A stretch of DNA of 32,000 nucleotides from Promethearchaeota archaeon (lineage in GTDB: Archaea > Asgardarchaeota > Hermodarchaeia > Hermodarchaeales > Hermodarchaeaceae). Location of the stretch: the NCBI GenBank assembly GCA_048938295.1, contig JBHLMI010000005.1:30001-62000 (forward strand). The letters are read 5' to 3'. The position numbers were made by a program, and so were the translations under genes. The notes under the pieces were generated by a model. That model did no database searches and had not been told where the DNA came from. It saw only the letters and a program-made list of their open reading frames with translations. Positions 1,004 through 18,604 of this stretch are shown here, piece after piece; within the stretch, counting starts at the first letter, position 1, and the number at the start of each line of letters is the position of its first letter.

Positions 1004-2134
1004 ATGATTGGACAGCCAGATTGGGAAAATATTGCTAAATTCGTGCAAGACGGGCAACTGCCCTTTCCACATTCTTGTGTAAAGGAACAAGTACGTAAGA
1101 GTACACTCGAATGGGAGGAAGTCCCTGGACCAATTCCGACGAATGAACACCCATTTGATATTATTCGAGCCTCGATTAAACGAACAGTTGCCAGATACAA
1201 TATCAAGAGAGTGGGAGTCTGGCTAAGCGGCGGAATCGACAGTAGCTTGATGACAGCACTAACCGCTGAGGTATTAGGACCCAAAAATGTAACTGCCTAT
1301 ACTTTGCGATTTGAAGGTAGTGATGAAAGTCCTAACGCCAAAGTAACTGTTGATCACGTTGGCTGTAATTGGAAAGTTGAGGACATGACGTTAGATGATC
1401 ATTGTAGATTGCTTCGAGCTACGATTCGAAATGCCCTAGCGCCCGTTGGATTTACTACTCACAAACTTCGAATAGCACAGATAAGCAACGAAGAAGAGCA
1501 TGTTTTTTCGGCTCTTGGACTTGATGAATTATGTGGTGGATATCATGCACACGTTTGGGCTTCTGATGATGAGTTTGCTGAGGTTGAAAGACAAAAGTTT
1601 GAGGAGGCCAGTTACAACTTCGTTTGGATCAACGCACAAGAGAGTAAACAGGCTCGATTTAAACTCCATTATCCTTACCTCGACCCTGAGGTAATCGGAA
1701 AGTTCAGATCGTTCCCCCGAGAGTTAAAGACCCATGGTGACGAAACAAAGGTGATGATACGTAAAGAACTTCAAGAAAGTACTATTCTTCCCCCCTCAAC
1801 TATCGAACTGGGAAGAGTTGCTGGGACAAAGGGTGGATTTCTTCCCAATATCCTCACCTGGTGGAATCAGGGTTATGGTAAATGGGCACTTTCACAAGCT
1901 AAAGAAGGACAGCGCCTGTTGGATGAGAATCTCCCGGATAATCCGGTCAATATGGGAAGCGGAATGATGATTCGATTAGAGACTTTTGTACGTAGTTCAT
2001 CCACTCTAACACGCTTAGCGCGACAGGTGTTTCGGCGAAGAGGCGGAACTTTAGGCGGACGCTCGAACCTGTGGATTATCGCACGACTTGCATCAATACC
2101 GATACTCATCGATATCCTTGAAAAAGGAGAATAA
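1004..2134 (+). CDS. Asparagine synthetase-like ATP-dependent amide ligase, synthetase domain only (no N-terminal glutaminase domain)
   Basis: PP-loop VWLSGGIDSS, ALGLDELCGGY (cf. GEGADELFGGY), YPYLD, KVMIR, KGGF..W. About 55 aa precede the synthetase domain and the upstream gap is only 70 bp. Confidence 0.8.
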   Translation: MIGQPDWENIAKFVQDGQLPFPHSCVKEQVRKSTLEWEEVPGPIPTNEHPFDIIRASIKRTVARYNIKRVGVWLSGGIDSSLMTALTAEVLGPKNVTAYTLRFEGSDESPNAKVTVDHVGCNWKVEDMTLDDHCRLLRATIRNALAPVGFTTHKLRIAQISNEEEHVFSALGLDELCGGYHAHVWASDDEFAEVERQKFEEASYNFVWINAQESKQARFKLHYPYLDPEVIGKFRSFPRELKTHGDETKVMIRKELQESTILPPSTIELGRVAGTKGGFLPNILTWWNQGYGKWALSQAKEGQRLLDENLPDNPVNMGSGMMIRLETFVRSSSTLTRLARQVFRRRGGTLGGRSNLWIIARLASIPILIDILEKGE

Positions 2135-2142
2135 ACTAGGGA

Positions 2143-3264
2143 TCATCTCTTTGACTGCGCAGCCTTATAGGCTTGCTCTAATTGTCCACCATAGTGGGAC
2201 CATAAGAGAAAGCGTTGGGCTACCTTACGCACCCTTAATTTTTCTTTATTCCAGCTATCTACATCAGCAAAGTAATTGCGTGTGAGTTGTTGAATTCTTG
2301 TCTTCAATTCACCAATCGATGCCCAAGACCAGCCCACATCATGCTCCTTACAAAACTCGACTTCGGTGGGTTTGGTAGTGGGAACAATGGATTTCAAGCC
2401 TGCATGAAGAAATAGTGAAAACCGATTTTGTATGGAATAAACTGGACGGCGCGTCCACTTTCCTAATAACGCTGCATCACATGTACTGAAGACTTGAAGC
2501 ATCTTTTGGTGAGTTACATAACCGACATTGATGACTTCCTCTGTGTGTATCACGGGATATCCGATAAACACTAAAGAGGCACCGAAGCGATTCTGAAGCC
2601 AGAGTTCGAGGGTTTTTTTATCTGGGCGTTGGTTCAAAGGCAATTGATCTCGAGACACGATTGCGATTCGAAATTCGTCGTCAATGTTCTCGTTAGGGGG
2701 TATTAGTTCAACCTCTTGCTGAGTTGGCACATTGGGTATGACGTACACAAGCTGGTTTTTCCGCCGATATAGTTGTGCAAATTGTTTGCTTACGGTAATA
2801 ATCGGAGATGACTGTATAAGCTGTGCATCCCATTTTCGCCAGTTGTAAAAGGCAAACCTCGTTGCAAGGCGACGAGTAATAGTGCGATTTCGTTTAATCA
2901 CATCTGAACCCTGATAGGTAATTCGAGAACCCCAAATTTCATGGTCATCGTAAACGAATGGGTGTCCTACATCCAAAGCGACCTTAGCAGCAAAGAGGTC
3001 ATGAGCATGGATGAGATCGGGTTCTTCTTCTCGGATGAGCCACCGAAGCCAATCCCGTATTTTATGCAAAGTTCCAAAGAAGCCAGTTTTTTCATACGGT
3101 CCCCAATGCCGATAGTAGACTTTTTCAAACACACCAAAAATTTGATTTTGCGGAGGTCTCCCTCCAGCGAACACAACATCCCAACCTTTCATCTTTGAAT
3201 AGAGAGCGGCACGCTCAACCCGTGTATCGGGCAACCCAACATCAGAAAAATGTAGAATCTTCAT
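2143..3264 (-). CDS. Glycosyltransferase, GT-B fold, GT4-like
   Basis: DTRVERAA, PDLIHAHD, FVYDDHEIW, IITVS, YVIPNVP and YSIQNRFSLFLHAGL (cf. YSLPNKLFEYMAAGL) are GT4-type motifs. Confidence 0.7.
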   Translation of the reverse strand: MKILHFSDVGLPDTRVERAALYSKMKGWDVVFAGGRPPQNQIFGVFEKVYYRHWGPYEKTGFFGTLHKIRDWLRWLIREEEPDLIHAHDLFAAKVALDVGHPFVYDDHEIWGSRITYQGSDVIKRNRTITRRLATRFAFYNWRKWDAQLIQSSPIITVSKQFAQLYRRKNQLVYVIPNVPTQQEVELIPPNENIDDEFRIAIVSRDQLPLNQRPDKKTLELWLQNRFGASLVFIGYPVIHTEEVINVGYVTHQKMLQVFSTCDAALLGKWTRRPVYSIQNRFSLFLHAGLKSIVPTTKPTEVEFCKEHDVGWSWASIGELKTRIQQLTRNYFADVDSWNKEKLRVRKVAQRFLLWSHYGGQLEQAYKAAQSKR

Positions 3265-3375: not shown

Positions 3376-4509
3376 TCATGTAATGGCTTTCATGAATTTT
3401 TGTTTAATGTCGATCGGTGAAAGGGAAATTAGAGGTACATCGGCGTTGCCTGCAAGAGCAAGTACATGGATAAAGTTAGGACCGTGGTTCAAGTTTGAAA
3501 TGATTTCCACCAATTCATTCGCATCGTTAGTTTGAAAGACTTGTTCAATCCCCAAACCTAAAGCAACGCGAGCCAGGTCAACAACATTAACGGACGCTGT
3601 TAATTGATTGCCAGTTGAACCATGTACGCCATTATCGATGGCTATGATGGTCAGGTTACGAGAGGCGGTGCTGGCAATTGAGGCTAGAGCACCCAAATTG
3701 GACAACAAGCTACCATCACCATCAATCACTATAACTTGCCGTTTGGTAGAGACAGAAAGCCCTAGCCCGATGGAGGATGCAAGACCTAAACTCCCTAACA
3801 TGTAAAAATTCTCAGGTCGATGTCTGATGTAGTATAGTTCCCGTGATGGGAAACCGATATTGCTCACCACTATTTCATCTTTCAGAATAGATCCAATTGC
3901 TTCGAGCATTTGATAACGGGAAAAATTCCGATTCCACTGTGACCGATCAATCTCTTGGGAATGGGGTGTTGTATAGGAAACAGATGGTGTTTCAATAAGA
4001 GGCGGGCTTTTTTCATGCTGCCAGAGTTCAGGACTGATTAAGACTACTTGCAGGGAGTTTTGAGAGTAGCATTCTTTGATAATTACTGGAAGAGTTGTCA
4101 AATCCGTAGGATTTGCTATTTTTGTATACGAAATTCCTACGGCATCCAAGATCGCCGGTAATCGCTCACCGAGAGGAATTTGCGCAGGAATCGTTTCATT
4201 AAACACCCCACGCCAACTTGCTAAAACGAGTAAGGGAAATTGATAGGTTATGGTCAACGAGCACAGGGCATTGATCATATTTCCTAGCCCTGTACTTTGA
4301 ATTAACATAGCAGGTTTTTTTCCCCCAAGTGCTACACCCGCACAGATTCCGACACCTTCCTCTTCCTTGGTAAGACCAAGGCTTGGAAAGGTTTCACGAA
4401 CCAAATTGTAGAGCCGCTGGAATTTTGCACAGGGATAGGTGGCGACGAAATTTACCCCACCATTTTGTAGAATTTCAACTATAGATTCGGAGAGGTTTAC
4501 CATGATCAT
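3376..4509 (-). CDS. comDE: Sulfopyruvate decarboxylase, fused alpha/beta subunits (ThDP-dependent)
   Basis: Alpha part: ATYPCAK, TKEEEGVGICAG, LIQSTGLGN, SWRG. Beta part: VSNIGFPSRELY, NFYMLGSLGLASSIGLG, ThDP motif DGDGSLL..IDNGVHGSTGNQ. Lies next to cysteate synthase, as in Methanosarcinales. Confidence 0.88.
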   Translation of the reverse strand: MIMVNLSESIVEILQNGGVNFVATYPCAKFQRLYNLVRETFPSLGLTKEEEGVGICAGVALGGKKPAMLIQSTGLGNMINALCSLTITYQFPLLVLASWRGVFNETIPAQIPLGERLPAILDAVGISYTKIANPTDLTTLPVIIKECYSQNSLQVVLISPELWQHEKSPPLIETPSVSYTTPHSQEIDRSQWNRNFSRYQMLEAIGSILKDEIVVSNIGFPSRELYYIRHRPENFYMLGSLGLASSIGLGLSVSTKRQVIVIDGDGSLLSNLGALASIASTASRNLTIIAIDNGVHGSTGNQLTASVNVVDLARVALGLGIEQVFQTNDANELVEIISNLNHGPNFIHVLALAGNADVPLISLSPIDIKQKFMKAIT

Positions 4510-4533
4510 TCATCAACTAAAAGGCTCTAGATT

Positions 4534-5754
4534 TTAAAGAAATAAATCTTCCATCGAAGCGTGAGGTGATATATGCTGCTCTGGTATGATTTTATGAAAA
4601 CCAAAATCCCGTTCCAACCCCTTTAGACCGCCCCCAGTGACATTAAGGAGCGTATAATCAGTGTTCCCAATTCTTTCAAGTTCTATTGCCTGAAAGAGAG
4701 AAGCCACAGCCACTTCTGCAGCGGGAAGGATATCAATCCCTTCAAGAGATTCAAACTTCTTTCCGGCTTGTTGCGCTTCTTTATTAGTAACAGAATACAT
4801 TTGCCCATGCGTACTTGTTAATGCATCATAGACGCCTCCCTCAATGGAATAGGGAGGAGAACGATTCGATAATACTAATGCATGCATCTCCTTAATACAC
4901 TGCTGGGGATTGGGCATATCTTCAGGTAATATTTGGCGACGACCTGCTTGCCATGCATTGTAGATAGGAATAAACGGAGCGTTTTGAGATAAATGAAGAA
5001 TTGGGTCTCCCCTCCAATCGTGATTTTGAAGGCGCACGGCCATTTCCCAAGAAGCTATGGCTCCGGTTCCGGAACCAATTGCTTGGAAGTAATGGTCTGG
5101 TAATCGTTTCATCATAAAAGCAGCATCAAGCATCACTGTTCCCATACCATCTCGGCGAGCAACGTTTTTCGCACCACCTTCAGGTACCACCTTTCTAATT
5201 TGACTAAACCTGTTGGCAGTGTTGATTGCATCGCAGTAATCACCACTTACCGCTAGAAGGTGAATATGATCAGTGGGAGGTTCGGGTGTCCAGAGCATAT
5301 CTAGTCCTGACTCGGGGACAACCAGATACACATCAAATTGTGTTTGGTTGGCAAGGTGACCAAATGCTCTTGCTGTGTTGCCAACTGACGCGATTACGAT
5401 GCCTGTAACTCCGTTCTCTTTTGCCCGGGCAATAGTAGGATTTGATTCCAAATCCTTAAACGATCCAGTGAGATTCCATGCTTCACGGTCAGGCCAATAC
5501 CCAGTAAACGCTATGAAGAGGTTTTTCAATCCTAGTTCCTTTGCTAATCCATTGCTTCGAAAGGTTATAGACCCCGCCTTTGTTGATAGAGGCTGCGAGC
5601 AGGGTAACCAGTCAATGAACCTCCAGAGTCCGGGAAATGGTTTAAGCTTAAGAGAATTAGAATATTCAGTTTTTAGAAGAGAGGAACAGTGGCAAGAAAG
5701 GGCATATCCCTTAAATTCCCTCTTACAGCTTGGACATATTATCCGGTAACCCAT
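4534..5754 (-). CDS. Cysteate synthase (PLP-dependent, threonine-synthase fold)
   Basis: N-terminal CPSC..CHC Zn ribbon, LWRFIDWLP, FTGYWPDR, GSFKDLE (PLP Lys), ASVGNTARAF, EGGAKNVARRDGMGTVM, YFQAIGSGTG, VLSNRSPPY. Strong SD AGGAGTGA before the ATG. Confidence 0.9.
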   Translation of the reverse strand: MGYRIICPSCKREFKGYALSCHCSSLLKTEYSNSLKLKPFPGLWRFIDWLPCSQPLSTKAGSITFRSNGLAKELGLKNLFIAFTGYWPDREAWNLTGSFKDLESNPTIARAKENGVTGIVIASVGNTARAFGHLANQTQFDVYLVVPESGLDMLWTPEPPTDHIHLLAVSGDYCDAINTANRFSQIRKVVPEGGAKNVARRDGMGTVMLDAAFMMKRLPDHYFQAIGSGTGAIASWEMAVRLQNHDWRGDPILHLSQNAPFIPIYNAWQAGRRQILPEDMPNPQQCIKEMHALVLSNRSPPYSIEGGVYDALTSTHGQMYSVTNKEAQQAGKKFESLEGIDILPAAEVAVASLFQAIELERIGNTDYTLLNVTGGGLKGLERDFGFHKIIPEQHISPHASMEDLFL

Positions 5755-6449
5755 ATTTCACTCCTGGGTTCTGTCTTGCCCGAATCTGTTTTTTTATGCA
5801 TTGTATGAATGCCACATTCCCCCCCACATTTACTTGTCCCCTGCCACCGACCCGCTCTTTCAGTTTCCTCATCCGAAACTAGTTTAGTACAAGGAGCGCA
5901 ACCCAAGCTTCGATATCCTTGCCGATATGCTGGATTTACTGGTACATCAAAAATCGCAGTATAACGCCAAATATCAGTCTCGGTCCAGTCAAGAATAGGA
6001 TTAACCTTCATTGTTCCGTTACAGACCTCAAAGGGCTCAAAATCAGTTCTTGTTCGCCCCTCAGTTCGACGCAGTCCAGTTATCCAGGCATCCAAATTCT
6101 TGATTGCTCGAAGAGTGGGTTCGACCTTAAATATTTGGCAACATCGATCGGGATCGGAGATCCAGAGCCCCTCTATGGGTTCTTGATCTGACATAAAGAC
6201 TGTCAAGTTCAAATTCCATTTCTTTACAACCTGATCCTTGAACTCAAAGGTTTCGGAGGGTTTCATTGGAGTCATGATAGCAAAAACCGAAATATCCGGT
6301 TTTATTTGGCGGGCAAGAGATACCACGACCATGCTATCTTTGCCAAAACTACAGGCTACAGCAGTACGCGGATATTCCGAAAGTGCTTTTGCGATGATTT
6401 GTTTACTTTGTTCGATTTTGTCGAGTAGTGTACTGGGTTCGCTGTTCAT
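5739..6449 (-). CDS. cysH: Assimilatory APS reductase (CysH/PAPS-reductase family, [4Fe-4S]-binding type)
   Basis: SFGKDS PP-motif, RCCQIFKVEP, WITGLRRTEG.TR, KVNPILDWT, GYRSLGCAPCT, ERAGRW, C-terminal ECGIH. CC...CxxC is the APS-reductase iron-sulfur signature. Overlaps the cysteate synthase start by 16 nt. Confidence 0.88.
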   Translation of the reverse strand: MNSEPSTLLDKIEQSKQIIAKALSEYPRTAVACSFGKDSMVVVSLARQIKPDISVFAIMTPMKPSETFEFKDQVVKKWNLNLTVFMSDQEPIEGLWISDPDRCCQIFKVEPTLRAIKNLDAWITGLRRTEGRTRTDFEPFEVCNGTMKVNPILDWTETDIWRYTAIFDVPVNPAYRQGYRSLGCAPCTKLVSDEETERAGRWQGTSKCGGECGIHTMHKKTDSGKTEPRSEIWVTG

Positions 6450-6462
6450 TCGTTACCACCAT

Positions 6463-6618
6463 TAGAGATACCTTCACCTAGAGTTTTAATATAAAAAAAC
6501 TTCTGATTAAATCACCTTATTTTCTAGCGTTTTATTGCAGCGGATAGGTAGAGATACGTTAATATAACTAGAGTTGTATTCCCGTTTGCGAAATAAAAAG
6601 CGGGAAAAATCTCGCAAA
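6463..6618. promoter_or_regulatory. Divergent promoter region with repeated and inverted motifs (putative Lrp operators)
   Basis: TTAATATAA at 6486-6494 and 6559-6567. TAGAG(A/T)T at 6463, 6479, 6549 and 6569. Inverted repeats AATATAACT/AGTTGTATT (6561-6580), TTCCCGTTT/AAGCGGGAA (6579-6606) and TTTGCGA/TCGCAAA (6585-6618). Confidence 0.55.
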
Positions 6619-6634
6619 ATGATGTGAGTCCATT

Positions 6635-7132
6635 ATGGTTCAGAAAACCGAGTTATCTGATATCCAACTCAAACTGATTGGCCTTCTTTCACAAAATGCA
6701 CGAGCCCCAATTCGCCGAATTGCAAGTATAATGAAATTAAGTGAGGCTACAGTACGATACCATATTTCAAAACTTGAAGAGAGTGGAGTCATCAAAGGGT
6801 ATTCTGTTATTATTGATCCCACTAAGTTCCAGCTTCCAGTGTTCATCACAATTGGAGTTCAATGCGAACCTTCTTTAACAAGCCGTGTGGCAGAGACTCT
6901 CGCTAGTTCACCCTATTTTTATCTGGTTTGGGTCGTGACAGGTGCACACAACATTCATGCAAAAGCCGCTTTTCCCTCCGCTGAAGAAATGCAACGCGTT
7001 GTAGGAGAAGTAATGAGGCAAACCACGGGGATACTGAGCTATCATCTCTCTTTAAGGTTTGAAGCCATAAAAGACCCCTACCTCTTACCCCATGAATTGC
7101 TAGCTATCTCCCATAATAAGAAATCGAAGTAG
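6635..7132 (+). CDS. Lrp/AsnC family transcriptional regulator
   Basis: LSDIQLKLIGLLSQNARAPIRRIASIMKLSEATVRYHISKLEESGVIKGYSVIIDP is a classic Lrp HTH, followed by a RAM domain with VTGAHNI. Confidence 0.92.
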   Translation: MVQKTELSDIQLKLIGLLSQNARAPIRRIASIMKLSEATVRYHISKLEESGVIKGYSVIIDPTKFQLPVFITIGVQCEPSLTSRVAETLASSPYFYLVWVVTGAHNIHAKAAFPSAEEMQRVVGEVMRQTTGILSYHLSLRFEAIKDPYLLPHELLAISHNKKSK

Positions 7133-7211
7133 TCTGAAACGCAGAGATGAGTATAGCCAATGACAAAAAGAAGCTTGAAATAAAGGATACAAGTTGCTAG
7201 GGTTGATGATA

Positions 7212-8267
7212 ATGAAGAAACTCAAGATCCTTCTCACCGCTTGTGGGTGCCCTGGTGCGGCAACACTGATCCGAATGTTAAAGGAAAACGGTGAACGACC
7301 GGTTGAAATCATTGGAACTGACATGGATACTGAACCGATCGGAAAATACCTAACAGATGGCTTCTACCAGGTCCCTCCTGGGCACTCAGATACTTACATC
7401 CCGAAGATGCTTGAAATTATTGAAAAAGAAAAACCAGATGTGCTATTTCCCGAGTCCAGTTTTGAAGTATATCCCCTCGCCTTAAATAAAAGCCAATTCG
7501 AAGCACTTGGAACACAAGTTCTTGTATCCAATCCCGAATCAATTAAGATGGCTAACAACAAACTACAAATGTATAATGCAATCCAGAAAAACACCGACAT
7601 CCCTTTACCTAAATTTCATTCAGCGAGGTCCTTATCAGAGTTTCACGAGGTCATCGAACAACTTGGATATCCTCGCAACCCCATAGTCTTTAAACCTCAG
7701 GTAGGAAAAGGAAGCCGAGGAGTAAGAATCCTGGATTCAAAGATAGATCGTAAACGCCAATTAATGCAAGAAAAACCTACCAGTAAATACATGTCATTGC
7801 CGGAATTCGACTCTATCTTTGAAAACGTTGAAGCCTTTCCTGAATTATTGGTCATGGAATGGTTAGAGGGGATGGAACTTACCGCGGATACCCTGGCAAT
7901 GGACGGAAGGGAACTCCTTACGACTGTGAAAACCGTCGAACAGGCTCGTTGGGGAGTCATTGTTCGGGGAGAATTGGTCAAGAGGCCCGACTTAGTGGAG
8001 CAGACGCGCAAAATACTAAAAGCGATTCCGTTGAGCTTTTGTGTTAACCTCCAATTTATCGCCGATAGAATAATCGAGATTAATCCGAGAGTCTCGACTT
8101 TTATTTATCAAAAGGATTTAATCGCACCTTACTTAGCAGTTAAATTAGCTATAGGAGAACTCACAGAACAGGAAGTAAGAAAACACCAAACACGTATTGA
8201 CTATGGTCGTCGAATGACACGGTTCATGGATCAGGTGTTTCACAAAGGAGGTAAGCGAGTATTATGA
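7212..8267 (+). CDS. ATP-grasp ligase (carbamoyl-phosphate-synthase-like type found in polysaccharide loci)
   Basis: KILLTACGCPGA, IIGTDMD, NNKLQMY, VFKPQVGKGSRG, VMEWLEGME, EINPRV. The ORF track starts at TTG 7194; ATG 7212 is preferred and ATG 7206 is possible. Confidence 0.8.
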   Translation: MKKLKILLTACGCPGAATLIRMLKENGERPVEIIGTDMDTEPIGKYLTDGFYQVPPGHSDTYIPKMLEIIEKEKPDVLFPESSFEVYPLALNKSQFEALGTQVLVSNPESIKMANNKLQMYNAIQKNTDIPLPKFHSARSLSEFHEVIEQLGYPRNPIVFKPQVGKGSRGVRILDSKIDRKRQLMQEKPTSKYMSLPEFDSIFENVEAFPELLVMEWLEGMELTADTLAMDGRELLTTVKTVEQARWGVIVRGELVKRPDLVEQTRKILKAIPLSFCVNLQFIADRIIEINPRVSTFIYQKDLIAPYLAVKLAIGELTEQEVRKHQTRIDYGRRMTRFMDQVFHKGGKRVL

Positions 8268-8884
8268 ATAAAGATATTTTTCGCACGGTTCTTGTCTTGA
8301 GCCCCCATACCGATGACGGAGAACTAGGGGCCGGAGGCACAATAGCAAGGCTTGTTGAAGGAGGAAGTGACGTTTCTTATTTCGCATTTTCTGCCCCGCA
8401 GAAAATTCTCCGAAAAGAATGTGAAGAAGCCCTTCAAGTTCTAGGTGTGGATAAGTTGACGATTTTTGATTTCAAAGCTAGATATTTTCATCACGCTAGA
8501 CAAGAGATCCTCGAGATACTTTACGATTACAATCAGAAGCATGAACCGCATCTCATTCTTACGCCCTCCACTAATGATTTGCATCAAGATCATCAAACCA
8601 TAACGAACGAAGCGCTGAGAGCATTTAAGTCAAGTTCCATCTTTGGCTATGAACTACCCTGGAATTTGATTGTTTCAAGGGAAAGTGCCTTTGTCTCCCT
8701 TGAAGAACGCCATGTTGTGGCAAAACTTAACTCATGCTGGAAATATCAAAGTCAGATTAAGCAAAAGAGAGCATATTTCGATAAGGATTATTTACGTAGT
8801 CTACTGCGATCGAAAGGTCTTAAGATACAAACCCAATATGCCGAAGCCTTTGAAGCAATCAAGCTGGTATTGAAAGAATTCTGA
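8264..8884 (+). CDS. PIG-L/LmbE family N-deacetylase
   Basis: LSPHTDDGELGAGGTI and DLHQDH metal motifs, FGYELPWN, YAEAF. 4-nt ATGA overlap with the ATP-grasp gene indicates translational coupling. Confidence 0.88.
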   Translation: MNKDIFRTVLVLSPHTDDGELGAGGTIARLVEGGSDVSYFAFSAPQKILRKECEEALQVLGVDKLTIFDFKARYFHHARQEILEILYDYNQKHEPHLILTPSTNDLHQDHQTITNEALRAFKSSSIFGYELPWNLIVSRESAFVSLEERHVVAKLNSCWKYQSQIKQKRAYFDKDYLRSLLRSKGLKIQTQYAEAFEAIKLVLKEF

Positions 8885-8909: not shown

Positions 8910-10556
8910 TTATTTTGCGAGTCTTCGCATGAGAGAAATTACTCTATCAGTTGCTTTCCCATCGATTTTGTAGAGGTATTTATAAACAAAGTCAGAGCGC
9001 CTTTTAGAGAGTTGCCGATCAGTTTTTCCTTTTGCAAGTACATCCTCAATAACACCTCTGATCTTTTCTGCTTCATAGACTCCTATTGCTGCGCCTTCTT
9101 TGACCCACGGCAGGGGTTCAGTCAGCTTTGATAGATTTACAATAACGACGGGCTTATCCATGATAAGAGCTTCAAGGATAGTAGTCGAGTTCACAGATAG
9201 GAAAACATCACATGCAAAAATTGCTTCAATAGTGTCGGATTTTGGAGGTAAAACTAACACATCAGTTTCAAGTGAGTTCAGTTTTTCACTGAACCATTTT
9301 TCTGATTCATTTGGATGAGGTTTGACAACTATCTGAACTCCATCAATTGGCATTACGCTCTGTATAATATTAACAAAGAACTCCTCACGTAACCGTTCCA
9401 AGTGGAATGGTTGGGTAGCAAGCAAAACGAGTTTCTTCTTTGAATCTAGCTTGTTGCGTTTAAGAAAAACACTTCGATCATAGATTCGATTAGCGAAATA
9501 GAATACATCGTACCGTGGTTGACCAGAAACAACAACCTTTGATTTAGGATACGAACTGATTTTTGTCAGAATATCCTGAAATGATGGCCCAATTACAGAA
9601 GTACAGGACGGAAGCGGACAATAGGGGAAATGACTAAATTCCTGACGACTAATGTCTTCCTTTGCATACAGATAACCTATGTGATCTTTGGTTATTAGTC
9701 CATGCTGTTGGGCTAAGGAAGGAATTTGTTTCTTTTGACAAGCATAGATTAACGCCCGCTCAAAACCAACATATTCATTTTCGACTAACACAAGATCTGG
9801 ATTCTCTTTTTCGAGTAGGTCGAGACTTAACTCATAATATTGAACCATCAAGGGAAGATACACTTTGTAATAGTACTCGAAATCTGCTTGAAAAAGCGTG
9901 AAAACATCCTTCCCATGATACTGGAACGTATGCTTTCGTTTATTGTTTGCTTTCATTTTGGACAATTCAGCTGAAAACAATTCACGAGCTCTAAGGGTTT
10001 GGATTAATGATCTCCCTGTCAGGTACGACTCAAGAGGGGTAAATCGCCCAAGATGACGGCTTATCCGGGCATCCAATGCCATTTTGACAAATGAAAAGAA
10101 TGAGTAACCAAATGGATAGCTTGAAAAGAATTCAACTTCACCGGTTTTGGCTGATAACTTGCGAAGGATAGGGCCAAACAGTGAGTGGCCGCGAAGATAT
10201 TTTCCTGTTTTAATATCTCTGAAGCCTCTCCAATCAACCGTGTTAAAAGTGACAAAGACTTTCTTTTCCGCTCTTTTTCGTTTCACTCTCATTGGAAAAA
10301 AGAGTTTGGAAATAAAAGAGAACAAAATTACTGACAATATATATAATCGGCTTAGCCTCGATAAGATAAACTTACCAAGACTTCGTCTGTATTGTTTTTT
10401 CCCGGATTCAAAAACTATTGATAGGTCAAAAAAGAACCGATAGCGTAAGAACCACCAGAATGCAAGGTTATCATATTTGGTGGTATCAATGAGTGATGTG
10501 TTGGAATACACGTCTTTGTCTTTTAGAGTGTTAACCCATTGCAACAGACTTTGCAT
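8910..10556 (-). CDS. GT-B fold surface-carbohydrate transferase, candidate nonulosonate (CMP-sugar) transferase
   Basis: PDLVLVENE, AQQHG, GQPRYD, LLATQP, VVKPHP (9312-9323), SVNSTTILEALIMDKPV, DGKATDR. Lies beside the flippase and the neu genes. Confidence 0.6.
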   Translation of the reverse strand: MQSLLQWVNTLKDKDVYSNTSLIDTTKYDNLAFWWFLRYRFFFDLSIVFESGKKQYRRSLGKFILSRLSRLYILSVILFSFISKLFFPMRVKRKRAEKKVFVTFNTVDWRGFRDIKTGKYLRGHSLFGPILRKLSAKTGEVEFFSSYPFGYSFFSFVKMALDARISRHLGRFTPLESYLTGRSLIQTLRARELFSAELSKMKANNKRKHTFQYHGKDVFTLFQADFEYYYKVYLPLMVQYYELSLDLLEKENPDLVLVENEYVGFERALIYACQKKQIPSLAQQHGLITKDHIGYLYAKEDISRQEFSHFPYCPLPSCTSVIGPSFQDILTKISSYPKSKVVVSGQPRYDVFYFANRIYDRSVFLKRNKLDSKKKLVLLATQPFHLERLREEFFVNIIQSVMPIDGVQIVVKPHPNESEKWFSEKLNSLETDVLVLPPKSDTIEAIFACDVFLSVNSTTILEALIMDKPVVIVNLSKLTEPLPWVKEGAAIGVYEAEKIRGVIEDVLAKGKTDRQLSKRRSDFVYKYLYKIDGKATDRVISLMRRLAK

Positions 10557-10659
10557 CAGGTAACCACCGAAGAAATGCGAGTGAGTGCTTTTGCTTCGAG
10601 AAATGCCTTAGCAGTTTGTACTTATATAAAATCCCATGCACTTGGCGTCGTTTTTGGTT

Positions 10660-12189
10660 TCAGCCATCAGAAGCGATGATGTCGATATCTTCGCGAGGAT
10701 AGCCACCGATTCTTACGATCAAATCAACGATCCATTTTAACTTAGGTGAAATTACGCTTCTAATTATTATAATATCGTTAGATGGCAGAACCCGTAGTCG
10801 TAAGGCTGCAAAAACTGCTGCGAAAACTGAAACAACTGATAAAATTACGGAAAGAATAATGTCAAAACCTAATAACGTTGAAGCAATGCCCATTGCTAAT
10901 ACAATTAGCATTGGTATGAACAACTTGATCCAAAACAAGCCCAATGAGACTTCTTTTCTGAGATAAATGCCCACAATAAAGGCTAAAAGTAATTCAGAGA
11001 GGAGAACCGCAAAAGCCACTCCAATTAAGCCGAACCCAGCTAGAAGTGTTACAAAAATTAGCTTGAATGCCAACAGGCCACCCCACATGAATGGAACAAT
11101 TCTTGGTTTTCCAGCAGCTTGACGACCAAGTAGTAATAGAATAATGATGAGATCGAAGAAGGATGCGATTGCGAGAATCGTCAGGAGAGGACCAGATCCA
11201 AGATATCTTGGTCCAATGAACAGCAAGGCTAAAGGTTCCCCGAATGCAGCTACAGCGAGATAAATCGGAGCAGATATCACTAGCACAAATCGTAAAACTG
11301 CAGTATGAGCATTATGCATACGTGTAAGACTAATCCCAACAAGCATGCTCAGGATCGCAACAATTCCAGCAATTAAACTCACAGCAAAATCATACAAGCC
11401 CCCTGTAATACGAACTACCAAGAAGTATTGGGCAAGTTCTTCTGGTGTTAACAGAGCTAAGACATATAATTGATCGAAGTACCGACCAAGTAAGCGGATA
11501 ACTGAAGCTCCGAAAATTGATAACCCAAACGTAAGGTAAGTGGCGGTTGGAAGACCATCGGTGAGTCGGGCTCCGGAGAAGTATTTTGTAATTAGAACGA
11601 CCCCGATTACTACAAAGATAGCTGTACTAAGTATCCAACCAAAAATTATCCCAACAAAACTCATTAGGAGGAAGAGTAGGCCCAGAGAGAGGCCCCATGA
11701 CAGATACCGTCTGAGATTAGAAAAGACTACAGCCCTATCTGTTTCAACCATGCTGTTCAATGAGTCTGATTCAGATCGGAGCAATAGCTGAAGGATGATA
11801 TAGGTAACGAGAAGCCCACTCCACATGAAAAGGTTAACGAAGAAGAACGTGTTCAAAACGAAGAAGGACATGAAGGTAAGGACTAGGCTTAATGGGATAC
11901 TCACAGTGTAAAAAACAATCAATCCTTTAGCCAGTATGCCTTTCGCTGCATCAGTTTCCCCTTTACCAATGCTCGAAGAGGTCTTCTGAGTTATCGTGTA
12001 TGTAATACCAAAAATCGCAACTCCTTCAATCACTGTAGATAGTGTCACCAGAGCTGCGATAGTGGCCATCTCTGATTCTAACAGGACATCAGCAAGTATC
12101 CTGCCATAGAAGATATTGATAATAAAACCTACAATTGTGAGGAAAAAGCTGAATGCAGCTGTTCTAGCATAGGTTCGTCGAATTGCCAT
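10660..12189 (-). CDS. Oligosaccharide flippase (Wzx/MOP superfamily)
   Basis: Many hydrophobic segments (roughly 13-14 by eye), N-terminal YARTAAFSFFLTIVGFIINIFYGRIL, FDQLYVLALL.PEELAQYFLV (cf. D..i.g.flg...vG.Y), glycan-locus context. Confidence 0.8.
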   Translation of the reverse strand: MAIRRTYARTAAFSFFLTIVGFIINIFYGRILADVLLESEMATIAALVTLSTVIEGVAIFGITYTITQKTSSSIGKGETDAAKGILAKGLIVFYTVSIPLSLVLTFMSFFVLNTFFFVNLFMWSGLLVTYIILQLLLRSESDSLNSMVETDRAVVFSNLRRYLSWGLSLGLLFLLMSFVGIIFGWILSTAIFVVIGVVLITKYFSGARLTDGLPTATYLTFGLSIFGASVIRLLGRYFDQLYVLALLTPEELAQYFLVVRITGGLYDFAVSLIAGIVAILSMLVGISLTRMHNAHTAVLRFVLVISAPIYLAVAAFGEPLALLFIGPRYLGSGPLLTILAIASFFDLIIILLLLGRQAAGKPRIVPFMWGGLLAFKLIFVTLLAGFGLIGVAFAVLLSELLLAFIVGIYLRKEVSLGLFWIKLFIPMLIVLAMGIASTLLGFDIILSVILSVVSVFAAVFAALRLRVLPSNDIIIIRSVISPKLKWIVDLIVRIGGYPREDIDIIASDG

Positions 12190-12329
12190 CGTAAGTTCAT
12201 CTAATCAACCGAATGCGTAGAGGTCATGGTTTTGACTCTTACGATTCCCACTCTTTTTATTTCTTTATTTCAAGATATTCGAGAAAGCAATGCTTATTAT
12301 TCTGAATGAGAATGAAAACACGCCCTTAA

Positions 12330-12348
12330 TATTTAGAATGTCTAAATA
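12330..12348. promoter_or_regulatory. 8-bp inverted repeat next to a TATA-like element in the flippase/dehydratase divergent region
   Basis: TATTTAGA-ATG-TCTAAATA overlaps the end of TTAATATT (12326-12333), about 45 bp upstream of TTG 12392 (SD GGAGG at 12379-12383). Confidence 0.4.
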
Positions 12349-12391
12349 GGAGAAACCCACTTACTATACTTCCTGATGGGAGGCACTTTCC

Positions 12392-13336
12392 TTGAGTAAA
12401 TCAAAGAAAAAAGCTAAGGAAACTAAACCCGCCATCCTCGTTACGGGTGGAGCAGGTTCGATTGGAGCAGCGTTGACAGAACACTTGGTTAACACCATGG
12501 GTAAAGAATACACGATTCGTGTCTTTGACAACAACGAGTATGGAATCTGGTATCTACGGGAAAAGCTCAAGAATCCGAATCTGCGGTTTCTCGTTGGGAA
12601 TGTTCGAGACTATGCCCGTCTAAAGGAAGCCATGTTTGGGGTTAAGCATGTTTTTCATTGCGCGGCGTTGAAGCATGTGGCTCTTTGTGAGTTCAATCCA
12701 TTTGATGCGGTAGAGACCAATGTTATTGGTACACAGAACACTATCCGTGCCGCCTTCGACACATCAACAGTCGAAAAGTTCCTCTACATCAGTACTGACA
12801 AAGCGGTCAACCCGACCAGCATGATGGGGGCCAGCAAACTCATCGGGGAACGACTTATTCTAGCAGCCAACTACATTAAGGGTGATAGGAACATCATGTT
12901 AAGTTCAGCCCGTTTTCCCAATGTTATGGAAACAGCTGGGAATGTCTTTGAAGCGTGGGATTTCCAGTATCGAACCACAGGCACAATACTTGTGCGAGAT
13001 CCCGAGATGACACGATACTTCATCCACATCGACAGAGCAGTCGACTTTCTTATGGAGTCCTTTAACTTCATGAAAGGTGGAGAAATCTTCTTTCCTGCGC
13101 TCACCAAAAAGGACCAACAACGCATCATTGATGTAGCCAAAGACTGGTTGAAACAAAAGCAGTATGATGATGCAAAGATTGTTTACGGTACACCCGAGTT
13201 CGGAGAGAAGAAAGAGGAGGAACTTCATACCAAACCGGAAACGCCTTACGTGATTAAGGCATCCCCAACTCTCTACGTAATTCGTCCACCCACCTACGAT
13301 TTCTCACAGTGGAAGGCCAAGGACGAATCGAAGTAG
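12392..13336 (+). CDS. Soluble UDP-N-acetylhexosamine 4,6-dehydratase (CapD/PglF/LegB-like)
   Basis: TGGAGSIG, HCAALKHV..CEFNP..AVETNVIGT, STDKAVNP, MGASK, DPEMTRYF. Confidence 0.85.
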   Translation: MSKSKKKAKETKPAILVTGGAGSIGAALTEHLVNTMGKEYTIRVFDNNEYGIWYLREKLKNPNLRFLVGNVRDYARLKEAMFGVKHVFHCAALKHVALCEFNPFDAVETNVIGTQNTIRAAFDTSTVEKFLYISTDKAVNPTSMMGASKLIGERLILAANYIKGDRNIMLSSARFPNVMETAGNVFEAWDFQYRTTGTILVRDPEMTRYFIHIDRAVDFLMESFNFMKGGEIFFPALTKKDQQRIIDVAKDWLKQKQYDDAKIVYGTPEFGEKKEEELHTKPETPYVIKASPTLYVIRPPTYDFSQWKAKDESK

Positions 13337-13386
13337 TTTCAAATCTATGGCATTATTAAGATAACTTATTCAAAGGAGACATTGGA

Positions 13387-14094
13387 ATGAAGATATTAGC
13401 TACAATCTGTGCACGAGGAGGATCCAAAGGAGTTCCTAATAAAAATATCAGAAATCTTGCAGGTAAACCGTTAATCTCATACACAATTTCTGTTTTGAAG
13501 AAATGGGGACAGGCATCGAACATCATCACCTCAACGGATTCGCTTGAAATTGCTCGAGTAGCCAATGCGTATGGTGCAGAAACTCCCTTCTTACGACCAA
13601 AAGAGATGGCAACTGATACAGCACCAAAAATGCCTGCAATCCAACATGCACTAAAATTCTGTGAAGAACATTACAATACAAAATATGATATCGTTGTTGA
13701 TCTTGACCCAACAGCCCCTATACGGACTGTGAATAATTTAACTGAAGCCTTAGGAAAATTCATCCAAACTGAAGCTCAAGTCCTTTATAGTGTCACAGTC
13801 GCGAAAAAGAACCCATATTTCAATATGGTGGAACTTGATGAACATGGCAATGCCCATCTGTCGAAAACCCTTGAATCTGAATACTTCCGAAGGCAAGATG
13901 CACCAATAGTGTATGCGATCAATGGTTCAATCTATGTTTTTGACCGAGACTTTCTAATTGACGCGAAAAGTTTGCATTGTGAGAGAGAGAAAGTCTATAT
14001 TATGGATCAGATTGCATCTGTGGATGTTGACAGAGAAATTGACTTTCAATTCATTGAGTTCCTAATTGAAAGGGGCTATTTTCAATTTGATTAA
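13387..14094 (+). CDS. neuA: CMP-nonulosonic acid synthetase (acylneuraminate cytidylyltransferase)
   Basis: ICARGGSKGVPNKNIR.LAGKPLI, TSTDS, FLRPKEMATD, PTAPIR, INGSIY, SVDVD..IDF. Confidence 0.92.
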   Translation: MKILATICARGGSKGVPNKNIRNLAGKPLISYTISVLKKWGQASNIITSTDSLEIARVANAYGAETPFLRPKEMATDTAPKMPAIQHALKFCEEHYNTKYDIVVDLDPTAPIRTVNNLTEALGKFIQTEAQVLYSVTVAKKNPYFNMVELDEHGNAHLSKTLESEYFRRQDAPIVYAINGSIYVFDRDFLIDAKSLHCEREKVYIMDQIASVDVDREIDFQFIEFLIERGYFQFD

Positions 14095-14114
14095 CCTACA
14101 ATAGTTGGATAAAA

Positions 14115-15164
14115 ATGACTTACAGGATCAAAGTCGGAACAAAATACATCGGCAAAGCTGAACCAGTGTACATCATTGCTGAGGCGGGAGTCAATCACAA
14201 TGGCGATTTTAAGCTAGCAAAACAACTGGTTGATTCAGCAAAGGAAATCGGGGCTGATGCTGTTAAATTTCAAACATTCAAAGCTGACGATTTAGTCACT
14301 AGCAAAGCTGAAATGGCAGACTATCAGAAGAGACACCTCAAGGATGGAGCTAGCCAATATGAGATGATAAAGCGTTTAGAACTCGATTATGATGACTTCC
14401 GCAAGTTAAAGAAATACTGTGATGAAAAGGGAATTCAATTTCTTTCGACACCACACTCTCCCAGTGCCGTAGGCTTTTTAGATCCACTTGTTCCTGTCTT
14501 TAAAATTGCCTCTGGAGATCTAACCAATCTGCCGTTTCTTGAGCTTGTCGCATCATGTAACAAAGCGATTATATTATCCACTGGAATGGCAACTCTCGAT
14601 GAAGTCAGCGAGGCCGTACACGTAATCAGAGACAAAGGTGTCAATCAGCTGGTCTTAATGCACTGCGTAAGCAATTATCCAGCATCATTAGAAACAATCA
14701 ACCTTCGAGCAATGCTGTCACTACAAAAAGCCTTTGGAGTGCTAGTTGGTTACTCGGATCACACAATCGGATTTGAAGCTTCAGTTGCAGCGGTGGCTCT
14801 TGGGGCTTGTGTTATTGAAAAACATTTCACCCTTGATAATAGCTTACCAGGACCTGATCACAAGGCTTCAATGGAACCAAGGCAATTTGCTAAGTTGGTG
14901 CGGATTTTGAGAGGTATTGAAAAAGCATTAGGAGATGGCGTTAAGAAGCCAACAGAATCTGAAATGAAAAACCGGGAAGTTGCTAGAAAAAGCCTCATCG
15001 CTAGGATGGATATCCCAAAGGGTTCAACCATAACCGATAAAATGATTGAAATAAAGCGCCCAGGCACTGGAATTAAACCGAAGCATTTGAAGGACGTACT
15101 TGGGAAGAAGGCGAAAATCACAATAAAACGCGAACAAATACTAAACTGGGAGATGCTTGAGTAA
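14115..15164 (+). CDS. neuB: Nonulosonic acid synthase (NeuB/LegI family) with C-terminal SAF/AFP-like domain
   Basis: IIAEAGVNHNG, GADAVKFQ, FLSTP, KIASGD, LSTGM, HCVSNYP, GYSDHT, IEKHFTLD, GPDH, KRPGTG. Confidence 0.95.
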   Translation: MTYRIKVGTKYIGKAEPVYIIAEAGVNHNGDFKLAKQLVDSAKEIGADAVKFQTFKADDLVTSKAEMADYQKRHLKDGASQYEMIKRLELDYDDFRKLKKYCDEKGIQFLSTPHSPSAVGFLDPLVPVFKIASGDLTNLPFLELVASCNKAIILSTGMATLDEVSEAVHVIRDKGVNQLVLMHCVSNYPASLETINLRAMLSLQKAFGVLVGYSDHTIGFEASVAAVALGACVIEKHFTLDNSLPGPDHKASMEPRQFAKLVRILRGIEKALGDGVKKPTESEMKNREVARKSLIARMDIPKGSTITDKMIEIKRPGTGIKPKHLKDVLGKKAKITIKREQILNWEMLE

Positions 15165-15245
15165 CCATTGATCATCTCAAAAAGAGAATTATAGTGTTTA
15201 ATGGCGTAATTATGTGTCTGCAATTTTGATTGAGGTTACGTTTGA

Positions 15246-16232
15246 ATGAGTTTCAAATCCAAAGATATAAGGAGTTACGAAAGTGGGGATGAGAAAGAGA
15301 TACTAGAATTATTCGAAAGAGTATTTGAAAGAAAAATGTCACTTAATTTTTGGAATTGGAGATTCAGAGATAACCCTTGGGCAAAAGGCATTATAACCTT
15401 AGCATGGGATCAATCTGTCTTAGCTAGTCATTATGCAGTAATGCCAGTTCAAGTCCAGGTCCAAAACACGTTGATTAAAGCCGTTTTCTCAATGACAACT
15501 ATGACCCATCCCGAATATCGTGGGAAGGCCTTGTTTCCTAGATTAGCAAGACGAACCTATGAGACATCGAATGATTTGGGCTATAAACTCGTGTATGGAT
15601 TTCCAAATGCAATTAGCCATGGCGTATTTGTTAAAAAATTACGATGGTATGACCTGGGAAATGTACCGATTTACAGTCTGGACATATCTTGTATCCCTGA
15701 ATTTCTGAAACTTACAGATCCAAGTATCACTTCTGAGAAGATCACATCATTTAATGATGGCGTAGATGAATTATGGAACGCTACTAGAACTAATTTCCCT
15801 ATAGCTGTTCCACGGACCAAAATGTTCTTGAATTGGCGTTTTGCGGACCACCCAGAAATTGAGTACCCCATGTTTCTATTAAAGAATGGAAAAGGAGAAT
15901 TGATAGGCTATTATATTCTAAAGATATTCAAATCTGGCAGAGAAAAAAAAGGACATATAATTGATTACCTTCTCCTCGATACTGTTCTGTTTAGGGATGT
16001 TTTGATTTATGCAAGCGATTTTTTCACCAACTTAGGAATTCAGGATGTGTCTTTTTGGATGAATCAGTCCCTATTTCAAGCTCTAGAACCTGAAATACAA
16101 AAGGTGATTAAAAGGCATTTAATGTCGGAAGTATTTTTTGGAGGTTTATTGTTCGAAAACTTTGAGGGTTCAGAACTTTTCAAGGAATTTCACAATTACT
16201 ATATCACTATGGCTGATTCTGATGTATTCTAA
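15246..16232 (+). CDS. GNAT-family acyltransferase (two-domain)
   Basis: FWNWRFRDNP, TMTHPEYRGKALF (acyl-CoA motif A), LVYGFPN, RTKMFLNWRF.DHP. Confidence 0.8.
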   Translation: MSFKSKDIRSYESGDEKEILELFERVFERKMSLNFWNWRFRDNPWAKGIITLAWDQSVLASHYAVMPVQVQVQNTLIKAVFSMTTMTHPEYRGKALFPRLARRTYETSNDLGYKLVYGFPNAISHGVFVKKLRWYDLGNVPIYSLDISCIPEFLKLTDPSITSEKITSFNDGVDELWNATRTNFPIAVPRTKMFLNWRFADHPEIEYPMFLLKNGKGELIGYYILKIFKSGREKKGHIIDYLLLDTVLFRDVLIYASDFFTNLGIQDVSFWMNQSLFQALEPEIQKVIKRHLMSEVFFGGLLFENFEGSELFKEFHNYYITMADSDVF

Positions 16233-16321
16233 TAGCCAATCCAGCAGAATTCAAAATTCTTTTACTTAGTTGATTTACACATTACCTAGAGTTAGAAACT
16301 AACAGGGAAGAGAGTGTAAAG

Positions 16322-16990
16322 ATGAAGAATGTAATAATCATATCTGCCCATCCAGATGACGAAACTTATGGTGCGGGAGGAACCATTGCCAAACTATGTT
16401 CAAGAGGAGTGCATGTTGAATTAGTGATTTACACGAAAGCGTTTCCTCCTGAGTGGGACGAAGACGAAATAGAAAAACGGAAAAAAGAAGCTTTAGCGGC
16501 GGCAAAGGTTTTGGGAATAAAAGAAGTGCATTTTCTTGGATATTTGACTACTAAGTTGGATGTTACACCTCTTAGAGACTTAATTGACGATTTGAATCAA
16601 ATTCTAAAAACAAGAAATGCAGATACTCTTTTCTTACCATTCATAGGAGACATGCACCAAGATCATAGACGATTATTTGAAGTAGGAGTAAGCGTAGCAA
16701 AACCCACACCAGAGCAAACCCTTAGAAGAATACTGTCATATGAAACTCTATCCTCAACTGAATATGGTACACCGATTTTTGAGACCCCCTTTATTCCGAA
16801 CTACTATGTGAACATCAAAGAGCACTTGGATGATAAAATCTCAGCTGTATCCTGCTATAAATTAGAACTGAGGGAATATCCTCACCCACGGTCAATTGAA
16901 GGCGTAAAAACAAAGGCGAAAGCCCGAGGAATGGAAGTTGGGCTAGAGTTCGCTGAAGCGTTTAAAATATTGAGGTGGGTTTCTGAGTGA
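16322..16990 (+). CDS. PIG-L/LmbE family N-deacetylase
   Basis: SAHPDDETYGAGGTI, DMHQDH, LSYETLSSTE, YPHPRS, AEAF. 4-nt overlap with neuC. Confidence 0.9.
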   Translation: MKNVIIISAHPDDETYGAGGTIAKLCSRGVHVELVIYTKAFPPEWDEDEIEKRKKEALAAAKVLGIKEVHFLGYLTTKLDVTPLRDLIDDLNQILKTRNADTLFLPFIGDMHQDHRRLFEVGVSVAKPTPEQTLRRILSYETLSSTEYGTPIFETPFIPNYYVNIKEHLDDKISAVSCYKLELREYPHPRSIEGVKTKAKARGMEVGLEFAEAFKILRWVSE

Positions 16991-18141: not shown

Positions 18142-18175
18142 GCAACATCCGTATAAAGGAACAAAGGTTATTTCG

Positions 18176-18598
18176 ATGTCAGAAGATCGCTTCAAGGATT
18201 GGAAACATCCTGAATTCGATGATAGGGGTCTTACGAAGTGGAATTGGATGTGCCAATATCCCGAGAACCTAGAACTTGGAAAAAATACTGACATAGGTGC
18301 TTTTTCCTACATCAATGCGAGATTCATAGTACAGATTGGAGAAGGAGTAGAAGTAGGATCTCATTGCTCCATCTATTCGCATTCAACTATTGACGACAAG
18401 AAAGGCAAGGTTGTCATAGAACGAAATGTAAAAATAGGAACTCACTCGGTGATTATGCCGGGTGTTACTATAGGAGAAAACACCATCGTTGGCGCATTCA
18501 GTTATGTTACCGAAAGCCTGCCTAAGAATGTGATTGCCTTTGGCGTTCCAGCAAAGGTAATTAGACAACTAGATGAATCAGAGACCAAGGAGAGGTGA
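18176..18598 (+). CDS. Left-handed beta-helix (hexapeptide-repeat) acyltransferase
   Basis: Hexapeptide repeats LGKNTDIG, IGEGVEVG, IERNVKIG..SVIMPGVTIGENTIVGA, and FGVPAK. Confidence 0.85.
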   Translation: MSEDRFKDWKHPEFDDRGLTKWNWMCQYPENLELGKNTDIGAFSYINARFIVQIGEGVEVGSHCSIYSHSTIDDKKGKVVIERNVKIGTHSVIMPGVTIGENTIVGAFSYVTESLPKNVIAFGVPAKVIRQLDESETKER

Positions 18599-18604
18599 AG
18601 CGTT

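Follow-up and report, generated by a model that had tools for sequence, protein, structure and literature searches.

A reductase–cysteate synthase–ComDE operon at the edge of an Asgard glycan island and its possible sulfonate product

What does a non-methanogenic archaeon make with the first enzymes of coenzyme M (CoM) biosynthesis? The question is raised by a 32,000-nucleotide stretch of contig JBHLMI010000005.1 (positions 30,001 to 62,000 of the forward strand; hereafter the window) from the Promethearchaeota archaeon assembly GCA_048938295.1, in which genes for a CysH-type reductase, a cysteate synthase and a fused sulfopyruvate decarboxylase (ComDE) follow one another on the minus strand at 3376-6449. 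We consider it somewhat better than even, at roughly 55%, that this operon supplies a two-carbon (C2) sulfonate, with sulfoacetate favoured and taurine possible, that is amide-linked to a surface glycan; a surface glycan is the product's likely destination because the operon is surrounded by a glycan island. The genome (2.5 Mb, 91.6% complete) was analyzed with 18 relatives, together a family set of 19 genomes, and within a genus set of 15.

The trio of open reading frames was confirmed, with the 16-nt reductase/synthase overlap and the 24-nt synthase/comDE gap that an earlier note on this DNA had described, and the three enzyme identities proposed there were borne out by profile scores and motifs (Table 1). 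The synthase scored 516 bits on TIGR03844 against 39 on thrC, its pyridoxal phosphate (PLP) lysine, K100, is invariant in the alignment, and in a quick tree with an unsure root it grouped with methanogen cysteate synthases, apart from thrC-like paralogues, one of which is separately present in the genome. ComDE exceeded TIGR03845 (187/148, score/cut-off) and TIGR03846 (224/221.5), the latter, for the ComE (beta) part, by only 3 bits, and it failed the phosphonopyruvate decarboxylase model TIGR03297 (209/312.5). Neither phosphoenolpyruvate (PEP) mutase nor ComA was found in five genus genomes. Threonine synthase was rejected on the first comparison, the phosphonate pathway on the TIGR03297 score and the PEP mutase search, and a ComA route on the ComA search; the two misassignments that the earlier note had named as fatal to its proposal, a threonine synthase and a decarboxylase preferring phosphonopyruvate, are therefore not what the profiles indicate. 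The reductase carries CC at residues 103-104, CxxC at 184-187 and a C-terminal catalytic ECGIH, and its nearest solved relatives are the iron-sulfur (Fe-S) reductases 7lhr (E 1e-31) and 2goy (E 2e-26). It fell under the cut-offs of the models specific for adenosine 5'-phosphosulfate (APS) or 3'-phosphoadenosine 5'-phosphosulfate (PAPS) reductases (TIGR02055, 155/235; TIGR02057, 146/254), and because Fe-S PAPS and bifunctional reductases exist (PMC6286981), its Fe-S signature is no proof of APS specificity; the motif had been correctly seen but overstated as such a proof. Judged by sequence, every enzyme of the operon belongs to a known family, and the synthase and comDE together form the opening part of type II CoM biosynthesis.

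Identical gene order and spacing recurred in at least 10 further loci, so the reductase–synthase–comDE order is not due to chance. Reductase and synthase co-occurred in the same 7 of the 15 genus genomes, which supports the proposal that sulfite is generated specifically for C–S bond formation, and comDE was present in 13. Apparent frameshifts in one relative (G007) fall on N gaps and were therefore not called pseudogenes. The operon showed no sign of recent transfer, since its GC content and its GC content at third codon positions equal the genome values. Across 8 aligned relatives, the 185-nt interval between the reductase and the divergent Lrp gene kept its length, the TATA-like box, the GGTG motif and part of an inverted repeat, whose TGCGA...TCGCA core is partly retained. 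A sigma-70 promoter scan of the locus returned chance-level results, the model being ill-suited to an archaeon.

Table 1. Features of the operon and the surrounding island (window coordinates, except the last row; scores are given as score/cut-off)
Feature	Position	Strand	Length	Basis
CysH-type Fe-S APS (possibly APS/PAPS) reductase, predicted sulfite source	5739..6449	-	236 aa	PF01507, PRK02090 205/154; homologues retain the CC, CxxC and ECGIH motifs
Predicted cysteate synthase (PLP; makes L-cysteate from phosphoserine + sulfite)	4534..5754	-	406 aa	TIGR03844 516/325; invariant Lys100; groups with cysteate synthases
Fused ComDE sulfopyruvate decarboxylase (thiamine diphosphate, ThDP), predicted	3376..4509	-	377 aa	TIGR03845 and TIGR03846 above cut-off, TIGR03297 below; no PEP mutase match in five genus genomes
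TATA-like box (about 6488-6495) and GGTG ribosome-binding motif (6455-6460), 5' of reductase; putative function	6455..6499	-		Conserved alignment columns
Inverted repeat, 7-bp arms, 20-nt spacer; candidate Lrp operator	6585..6618			Lies in the 185-nt divergent control region
Lrp/AsnC regulator, divergent from operon	6635..7132	+		PF13412 and PF01037; same place in every genus locus reaching it
ATP-grasp ligase, candidate sulfonate-to-sugar amide ligase	7194..8267	+		PF21360/PF02655/PF15632; neighbourhoods; model pLDDT (predicted local distance difference test) 92
PIG-L de-N-acetylase, 4-nt overlap with ligase	8264..8884	+		PF02585; PHTDD and HQDH motifs
GT4-like GT-B glycosyltransferase, 111 nt after comDE, same strand	2143..3264	-		PF13439; Atlas look-alikes are glycosyltransferases
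Asn-synthase-like ATP amide ligase domain, alternative candidate ligase	1004..2134	+		PF00733 only; no glutaminase domain detected
Variable remainder of glycan island: 548-aa glycosyltransferase-like, flippase-like, PseB-like dehydratase, NeuA, NeuB, GNAT, second PIG-L-like, NeuC, acetyltransferase-like, DegT-like	8910..19729
Helix-turn-helix (HTH) regulator copies in other loci	L159:5960-6478, L043:7857-8375, L161:13883-14389, L182:9432-9989, L280:7805-8362

CoM-dependent alkane metabolism is not supported for this host. Ca. Hermodarchaeota is the label of both the closest named synthase homologue (80%) and a protein in the reductase's cluster, each with the identical gene order. Other close homologues carry varying NCBI labels (Hodarchaeota, Thorarchaeota, Promethearchaeota); a Hermodarchaeota-like Asgard archaeon is therefore the safe description on these labels. 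The search for mcr genes advised by the earlier note was run, and McrA was found in none of the 19 family genomes, the same search being positive in three other genomes (G135, G136 and G140) and in controls; the same is reported for Hermodarchaeota (PMC8163825). Searches for the CoM synthase MMP16 and for its paralogue in COG1900 were likewise negative in all 19, again with positive controls. In the methyl-coenzyme M reductase (MCR)-bearing Asgards G135 and G140, by contrast, the order is synthase-comDE-hdrCBA-MMP16, with no reductase or glycan genes adjoining, and in the carriers of the three-gene operon (this genus, G100 and G109) neither MMP16 nor McrA was found. Non-methanogenic status, on which the earlier note had made its reading depend, is supported; of the two outcomes it offered, alkyl-CoM reductase metabolism was rejected since McrA and MMP16 were not found, unlike in the MCR-bearing Asgards, and a sulfonate product other than CoM was judged the better one. 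The operon has the synthase and ComDE of the archaeal type II CoM pathway but lies outside that pathway by its lack of MMP16. One further Asgard genome, G020 (87% complete), holds a complete-looking CoM operon, synthase-comDE-MMP16 (L021:7231-10901; TIGR03287 502/364), and McrA was not found in it.

Comparison with methanogens covered 78 cysteate-synthase loci from methanogens, anaerobic methanotrophic archaea (ANME) and bacteria, together with five genomes. ComDE lay nearby in 49 of these loci, MMP16 in 24 and a reductase in 3, and in none did reductase and ComDE occur together, so the three-gene order is not a common one in ordinary methanogens, which the earlier note had said would remove its novelty. 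The ligase, PIG-L, GT4 and Lrp genes were also found in none of the 78. In the phosphoserine-dependent CoM pathway of Methanosarcinales and Methanomicrobiales (MA3297 synthase, MA3298 comDE, MA3299 MMP16; PMC11844431, PMC9457059), the synthase likewise precedes a fused ComDE, and the Methanosarcina proteins are about 52% (synthase) and 44% (ComDE) identical to those here; the present locus differs in that a reductase precedes them, MMP16 and MCR were not found, and the genes sit in a glycan island with Lrp, ligase and deacetylase. Coupling of reductase and synthase nevertheless also occurs outside this lineage, where it can be part of CoM synthesis, because a Methanophagales locus (L094:4718-8281) reads reductase-MMP16-cysteate synthase. 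A TGA appears near the end of that reductase gene.

The island is bounded by a TPR-CHAT gene and a ThiN/small GTPase/radical SAM block, with the operon at one end. By gene content, it has the nucleotide-sugar enzymes, glycosyltransferases, predicted exporter and variable content at a fixed site by which glycan islands are recognized: gene content differs between genus members and the site does not, and in every genus locus long enough to judge, the operon lies inside such an island. The flippase, second PIG-L, acetyltransferase and DegT labels come from sequence reading and BLAST to annotated homologues, the flippase having no Pfam match. The solved relatives of the PIG-L protein are diacetylchitobiose deacetylase and BshB, and a NodB-like protein takes its place as deacetylase partner in G002, G005, G006 and G109. 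For the ATP-grasp ligase, the structural model gave matches to the generic ATP-grasp fold, with no close solved relative and no clue to the substrate. The GT4-like gene adjoins comDE in most genus loci, and the Asn-synthase-like gene adjoins GT4 in L036, G002, G006 and the P0014 locus. The 1139-aa TPR-CHAT protein that marks the far edge of the island (19826-23245) occurs in 17 of the 19 family genomes. In G004 the comDE-ThiN-GTPase-radical SAM block is present twice on different contigs (L172, L173), probably through strain mixing in the bin.

On family membership, the reductase would convert APS to sulfite, the synthase would combine sulfite with phosphoserine to give cysteate, and ComDE would decarboxylate sulfopyruvate to sulfoacetaldehyde. 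Cysteate would be carried to sulfopyruvate by a general aminotransferase, which is how the two are bridged in methanogens (PMC9457059), and candidate aminotransferases are present in this genome. An unlinked aldehyde oxidoreductase or dehydrogenase, for which five aldehyde:ferredoxin oxidoreductase-like and two dehydrogenase-like proteins are candidates, would oxidise sulfoacetaldehyde to sulfoacetate. PIG-L would deacetylate an N-acetylated sugar, and sulfoacetate would be added to the freed amine by the ATP-grasp ligase, yielding an N-sulfoacetyl sugar. In a variant, amination of sulfoacetaldehyde would give taurine, which the ATP-grasp or Asn-synthase-like ligase would join to a sugar carboxyl through an amide bond. 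Glycosyltransferases and flippase would build and export the glycan, Lrp would control sulfonate supply, and the cell would gain a stable anionic surface analogous to that of aminoethylphosphonate tailoring, with sulfur in place of phosphorus. Among known systems, it is that tailoring which the proposed one would most resemble in its working: a ThDP decarboxylase of the same family provides a C2 aldehyde for cell-surface decoration (PMC6697681), though here the bond is C–S rather than C–P, PEP mutase was not found and amide ligation is proposed instead of CMP activation. C2 sulfonates are known from the sulfonated peptidylamido-glycan on Clostridioides difficile type B flagellin (PMC5207245) and, as an N-sulfoacetyl group for which a ComA-type supply cassette is predicted, from 2-sulfoacetyl misaugamycin B (PMC9136965). 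Those systems are bacterial and use other enzymes, with no synthase–ComDE or ATP-grasp/PIG-L route reported; the misaugamycin cassette employs an acyl carrier protein, an acyl-CoA ligase and phosphosulfolactate synthase (PMC9136965). No report of the present cassette or of Asgard sulfonated glycans was found in the literature searched, whose coverage left out most subscription papers.

Related cassettes in other lineages also bring the operon genes together with glycan genes. In G109, from another Asgard family, the order is glycosyltransferases, a small HTH regulator, comDE, synthase, reductase, a TauABC-like importer, ATP-grasp and a NodB-like deacetylase, and in G100, of that same other family, the three cassette genes lie between glycosyltransferases with the reductase divergent; in the quick tree, with its unsure root, neither synthase grouped with the one here. 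Two metagenome loci join ATP-grasp, regulator, (in part) importer, reductase, synthase, comD, comE, aldehyde dehydrogenase and glycosyltransferase, and a Bathyarchaeota locus unites a class III aminotransferase, ligase, PIG-L, GT2 and comD/E. Directly after comE, relatives carry a SafD-like aldehyde dehydrogenase or a SucCD/SauCD-like CoA ligase, and both additions, by their sequence families, point to sulfoacetate. The known roles of SafD and SauCD in sulfoacetate metabolism (PMC10413351) are catabolic or excretory, however, and the cassette matches, in genes outside this window, are below family cut-offs or nonspecific. Among 80 metagenome loci with homologues of the ligase, PIG-L was present in 57, and a Tau/Ssu-type importer (17), ComD/E (2) or reductase (1) lay nearby in 20, or in 8 of the 19 loci over 10 kb, counts made without a matched background on partly redundant, short loci from non-independent kin. 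The nearest solved relatives of the importer binding protein are, weakly, TauA and SsuA. We tentatively suggest, at a little under even odds, that these loci represent a widespread undescribed glycan-sulfonate system, in which ATP-grasp and de-N-acetylase install a C2 sulfonate either imported (TauABC/SsuABC-type) or synthesized de novo through the first half of the CoM pathway with its own APS reductase; in some carriers, one of them a single-contig genome, that reductase would work with no Sat-type ATP sulfurylase, which would imply another source of APS. The HTH regulators, a family of 170-185 aa, take the position that Lrp has here and are found repeatedly next to the importer, comD/E or the three-gene cassette; they are candidate sulfonate sensors. 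In G108 and G100 (L166:8246-13620, L167:6757-12294), an aminotransferase, an ATP-grasp homologue (45%), an argininosuccinate-lyase-like gene, ComA and a second APS-reductase-like gene lie together, a combination of ComA and lyase reminiscent of steps one and two in bacterial CoM synthesis.

Several observations weigh against a sulfonated surface glycan. The proposal draws entirely on gene context, the locus holds no enzyme to oxidise or aminate sulfoacetaldehyde, and potential CoM users are encoded in the genome. comDE has a fixed place at the island boundary and stays there when reductase and synthase are absent, and in G014 it lies in a continuous island lacking ATP-grasp and PIG-L, so the edge position of the operon may be incidental. 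Elsewhere, ATP-grasp/PIG-L pairs are mostly without a visible sulfonate gene, two loci that add an aminotransferase and SucCD-like ligase are outside glycan genes, SsuABC-type importers carry CoM too (PMC11844431), and the ligase-locus counts have the limits given above. Finally, Sat was not found in 5 of the 7 genus carriers, which leaves their APS supply unexplained.

The potential CoM users give substance to a different outcome, which we regard as unlikely: that CoM itself is made and, in the absence of MCR, serves Hdr, thiol:fumarate reductase and methyltransferases as a thiol for redox reactions or methyl transfer, the last step being abiotic (with sulfide) or left to another enzyme, and the island position being incidental. 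In this genome HdrB (TIGR03288, 396/345) and TfrB (501/385), the latter accompanied by TfrA, are above cut-off, an HdrD/E-like pair is present, and an MtaA-like protein is just under cut-off. hdrDE, hdrABC, mtbA and fumarate reductase are reported from Hermodarchaeota, with a CoM–CoB (coenzyme B) cycle left open (PMC8163825), in sulfide medium Methanosarcina acetivorans still reaches about 70% growth after deletion of MMP16 (PMC11844431), comDE comes close to being a core gene of the genus, and in the ANME-1-type Methanophagales locus a related reductase is linked to MMP16 and cysteate synthase. Yet Asgards with CoM-type loci retain MMP16, and neither it nor L-ASST, a possible back-up that is also of COG1900, was found in the 19 family genomes. 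Hdr-like enzymes use other thiols in many non-methanogens, TfrB is also present in G016 (81% complete), where comDE was not found, and a motif search gave one LeuA/C/B-like set only, a separate set for CoB not being evident. Synthesis of CoM would moreover leave the repeated link to glycan genes in another Asgard family unexplained. Were it nonetheless correct, the lineage would have a CoM-thiol cycle without MCR or MMP16, the point left open by PMC8163825. The HdrD/E-like pair adjoins complex-I-like membrane subunits, TfrAB adjoins fumarase-like genes, and hdrCB/hdrA/mvh lie near gcvH (L273:4514-6584, L274:1944-5238, L275:807-11886).

A soluble or lipid product, whether a bacillithiol-like glycoside, a compatible solute (taurine, isethionate, cysteate or sulfoacetate) or a sulfonated lipid head group, seems to us improbable. 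GT4, PIG-L and ligase mirror BshA/B/C, but PIG-L matches BshB1 only weakly, with a score far under cut-off (49/182). The SucCD-bearing relatives outside glycan loci, and other Asgards in which comD/E follow a nucleotidyltransferase and a CDP-alcohol transferase, would suit such products; against them stand the flippase-like, neu, UDP-sugar dehydrogenase and many glycosyltransferase genes of these loci, and an island content that varies by species as in surface-antigen loci. The nucleotidyltransferase and CDP-alcohol transferase genes lie directly before comD and comE in L184:5718-10455, L185:7882-10585 and L190:5677-11918, with comA and a comB-like gene following in two of the three, and the pair may point to a sulfonated lipid, or it may instead represent an unrelated di-inositol-phosphate synthase. 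We give very little credence to a catabolic role, in which comDE degrades environmental sulfonates, or to misassignment of a threonine synthase and a phosphonopyruvate decarboxylase. comDE does occur without the supply route in 6 genus genomes, and ComD/E homologues were present in 131 of 400 Asgard genomes, including 85 of the 135 in one other family, where comD/E sit in a conserved non-glycan neighbourhood adjoining a JAB-domain gene (L186-L189, L191) and a search for cysteate synthase gave no match. A sulfite-making reductase and a C–S-forming synthase nevertheless point to synthesis, as does the failure to find a sulfite reductase, and misassignment, for which the narrow ComE margin speaks, is opposed by the thrC comparison, the separate thrC-like paralogue and the PEP mutase and ComA searches.

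If a sulfonated surface glycan is indeed the product, "CoM biosynthesis" genes in Asgards and other non-methanogens could be taken as evidence for CoM or alkane metabolism only where MMP16 accompanies them, and the cell surfaces of Asgards would bear a new anionic modification installed by a directly assayable ligase. The operon also offers a concrete source of sulfite for cysteate synthase and brings into focus the question of where APS originates in archaea with a reductase but no ATP sulfurylase (PMC6286981). The earlier description of a sulfate-to-sulfonate route proved incomplete, as Sat, CysD and APS kinase were not found in this genome; the same gap has been noted in methanogens (PMC6286981). 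The genome search for sulfite reductase that the earlier note had advised detected no member of the NIR_SIR family, and assimilation of sulfite to sulfide was rejected on this result. The reductase of the operon shares its CC, CxxC and ECGxH motifs with assimilatory Fe-S APS reductases (CysH; 7lhr, 2goy) but differs from them in that neither sulfite reductase downstream nor Sat/CysDN upstream was found, and it is predicted to feed a sulfonate synthase. Sat was not found in the single-contig G100, where CysDN was not searched for, and is present in G109. In the sister genus (4 of 4 genomes), which gave no comDE or cysteate synthase match, and in G109, Sat adjoins phosphodiesterase/sulfatase-like genes (L049-L052, L306). 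The occurrence of ATP-grasp homologues beside CysDN and sulfotransferases raised the idea of a new sulfate-activating enzyme, which was set aside as no support was found; we know of no chemical precedent for such an ATP-grasp protein. Ligase homologues adjoin CysD/CysN-like genes or sulfotransferases at L249:236-2712, L263:1938-2747 and L159:11708-12502, loci that genes for sulfate-ester and sulfonate decoration seem to share.

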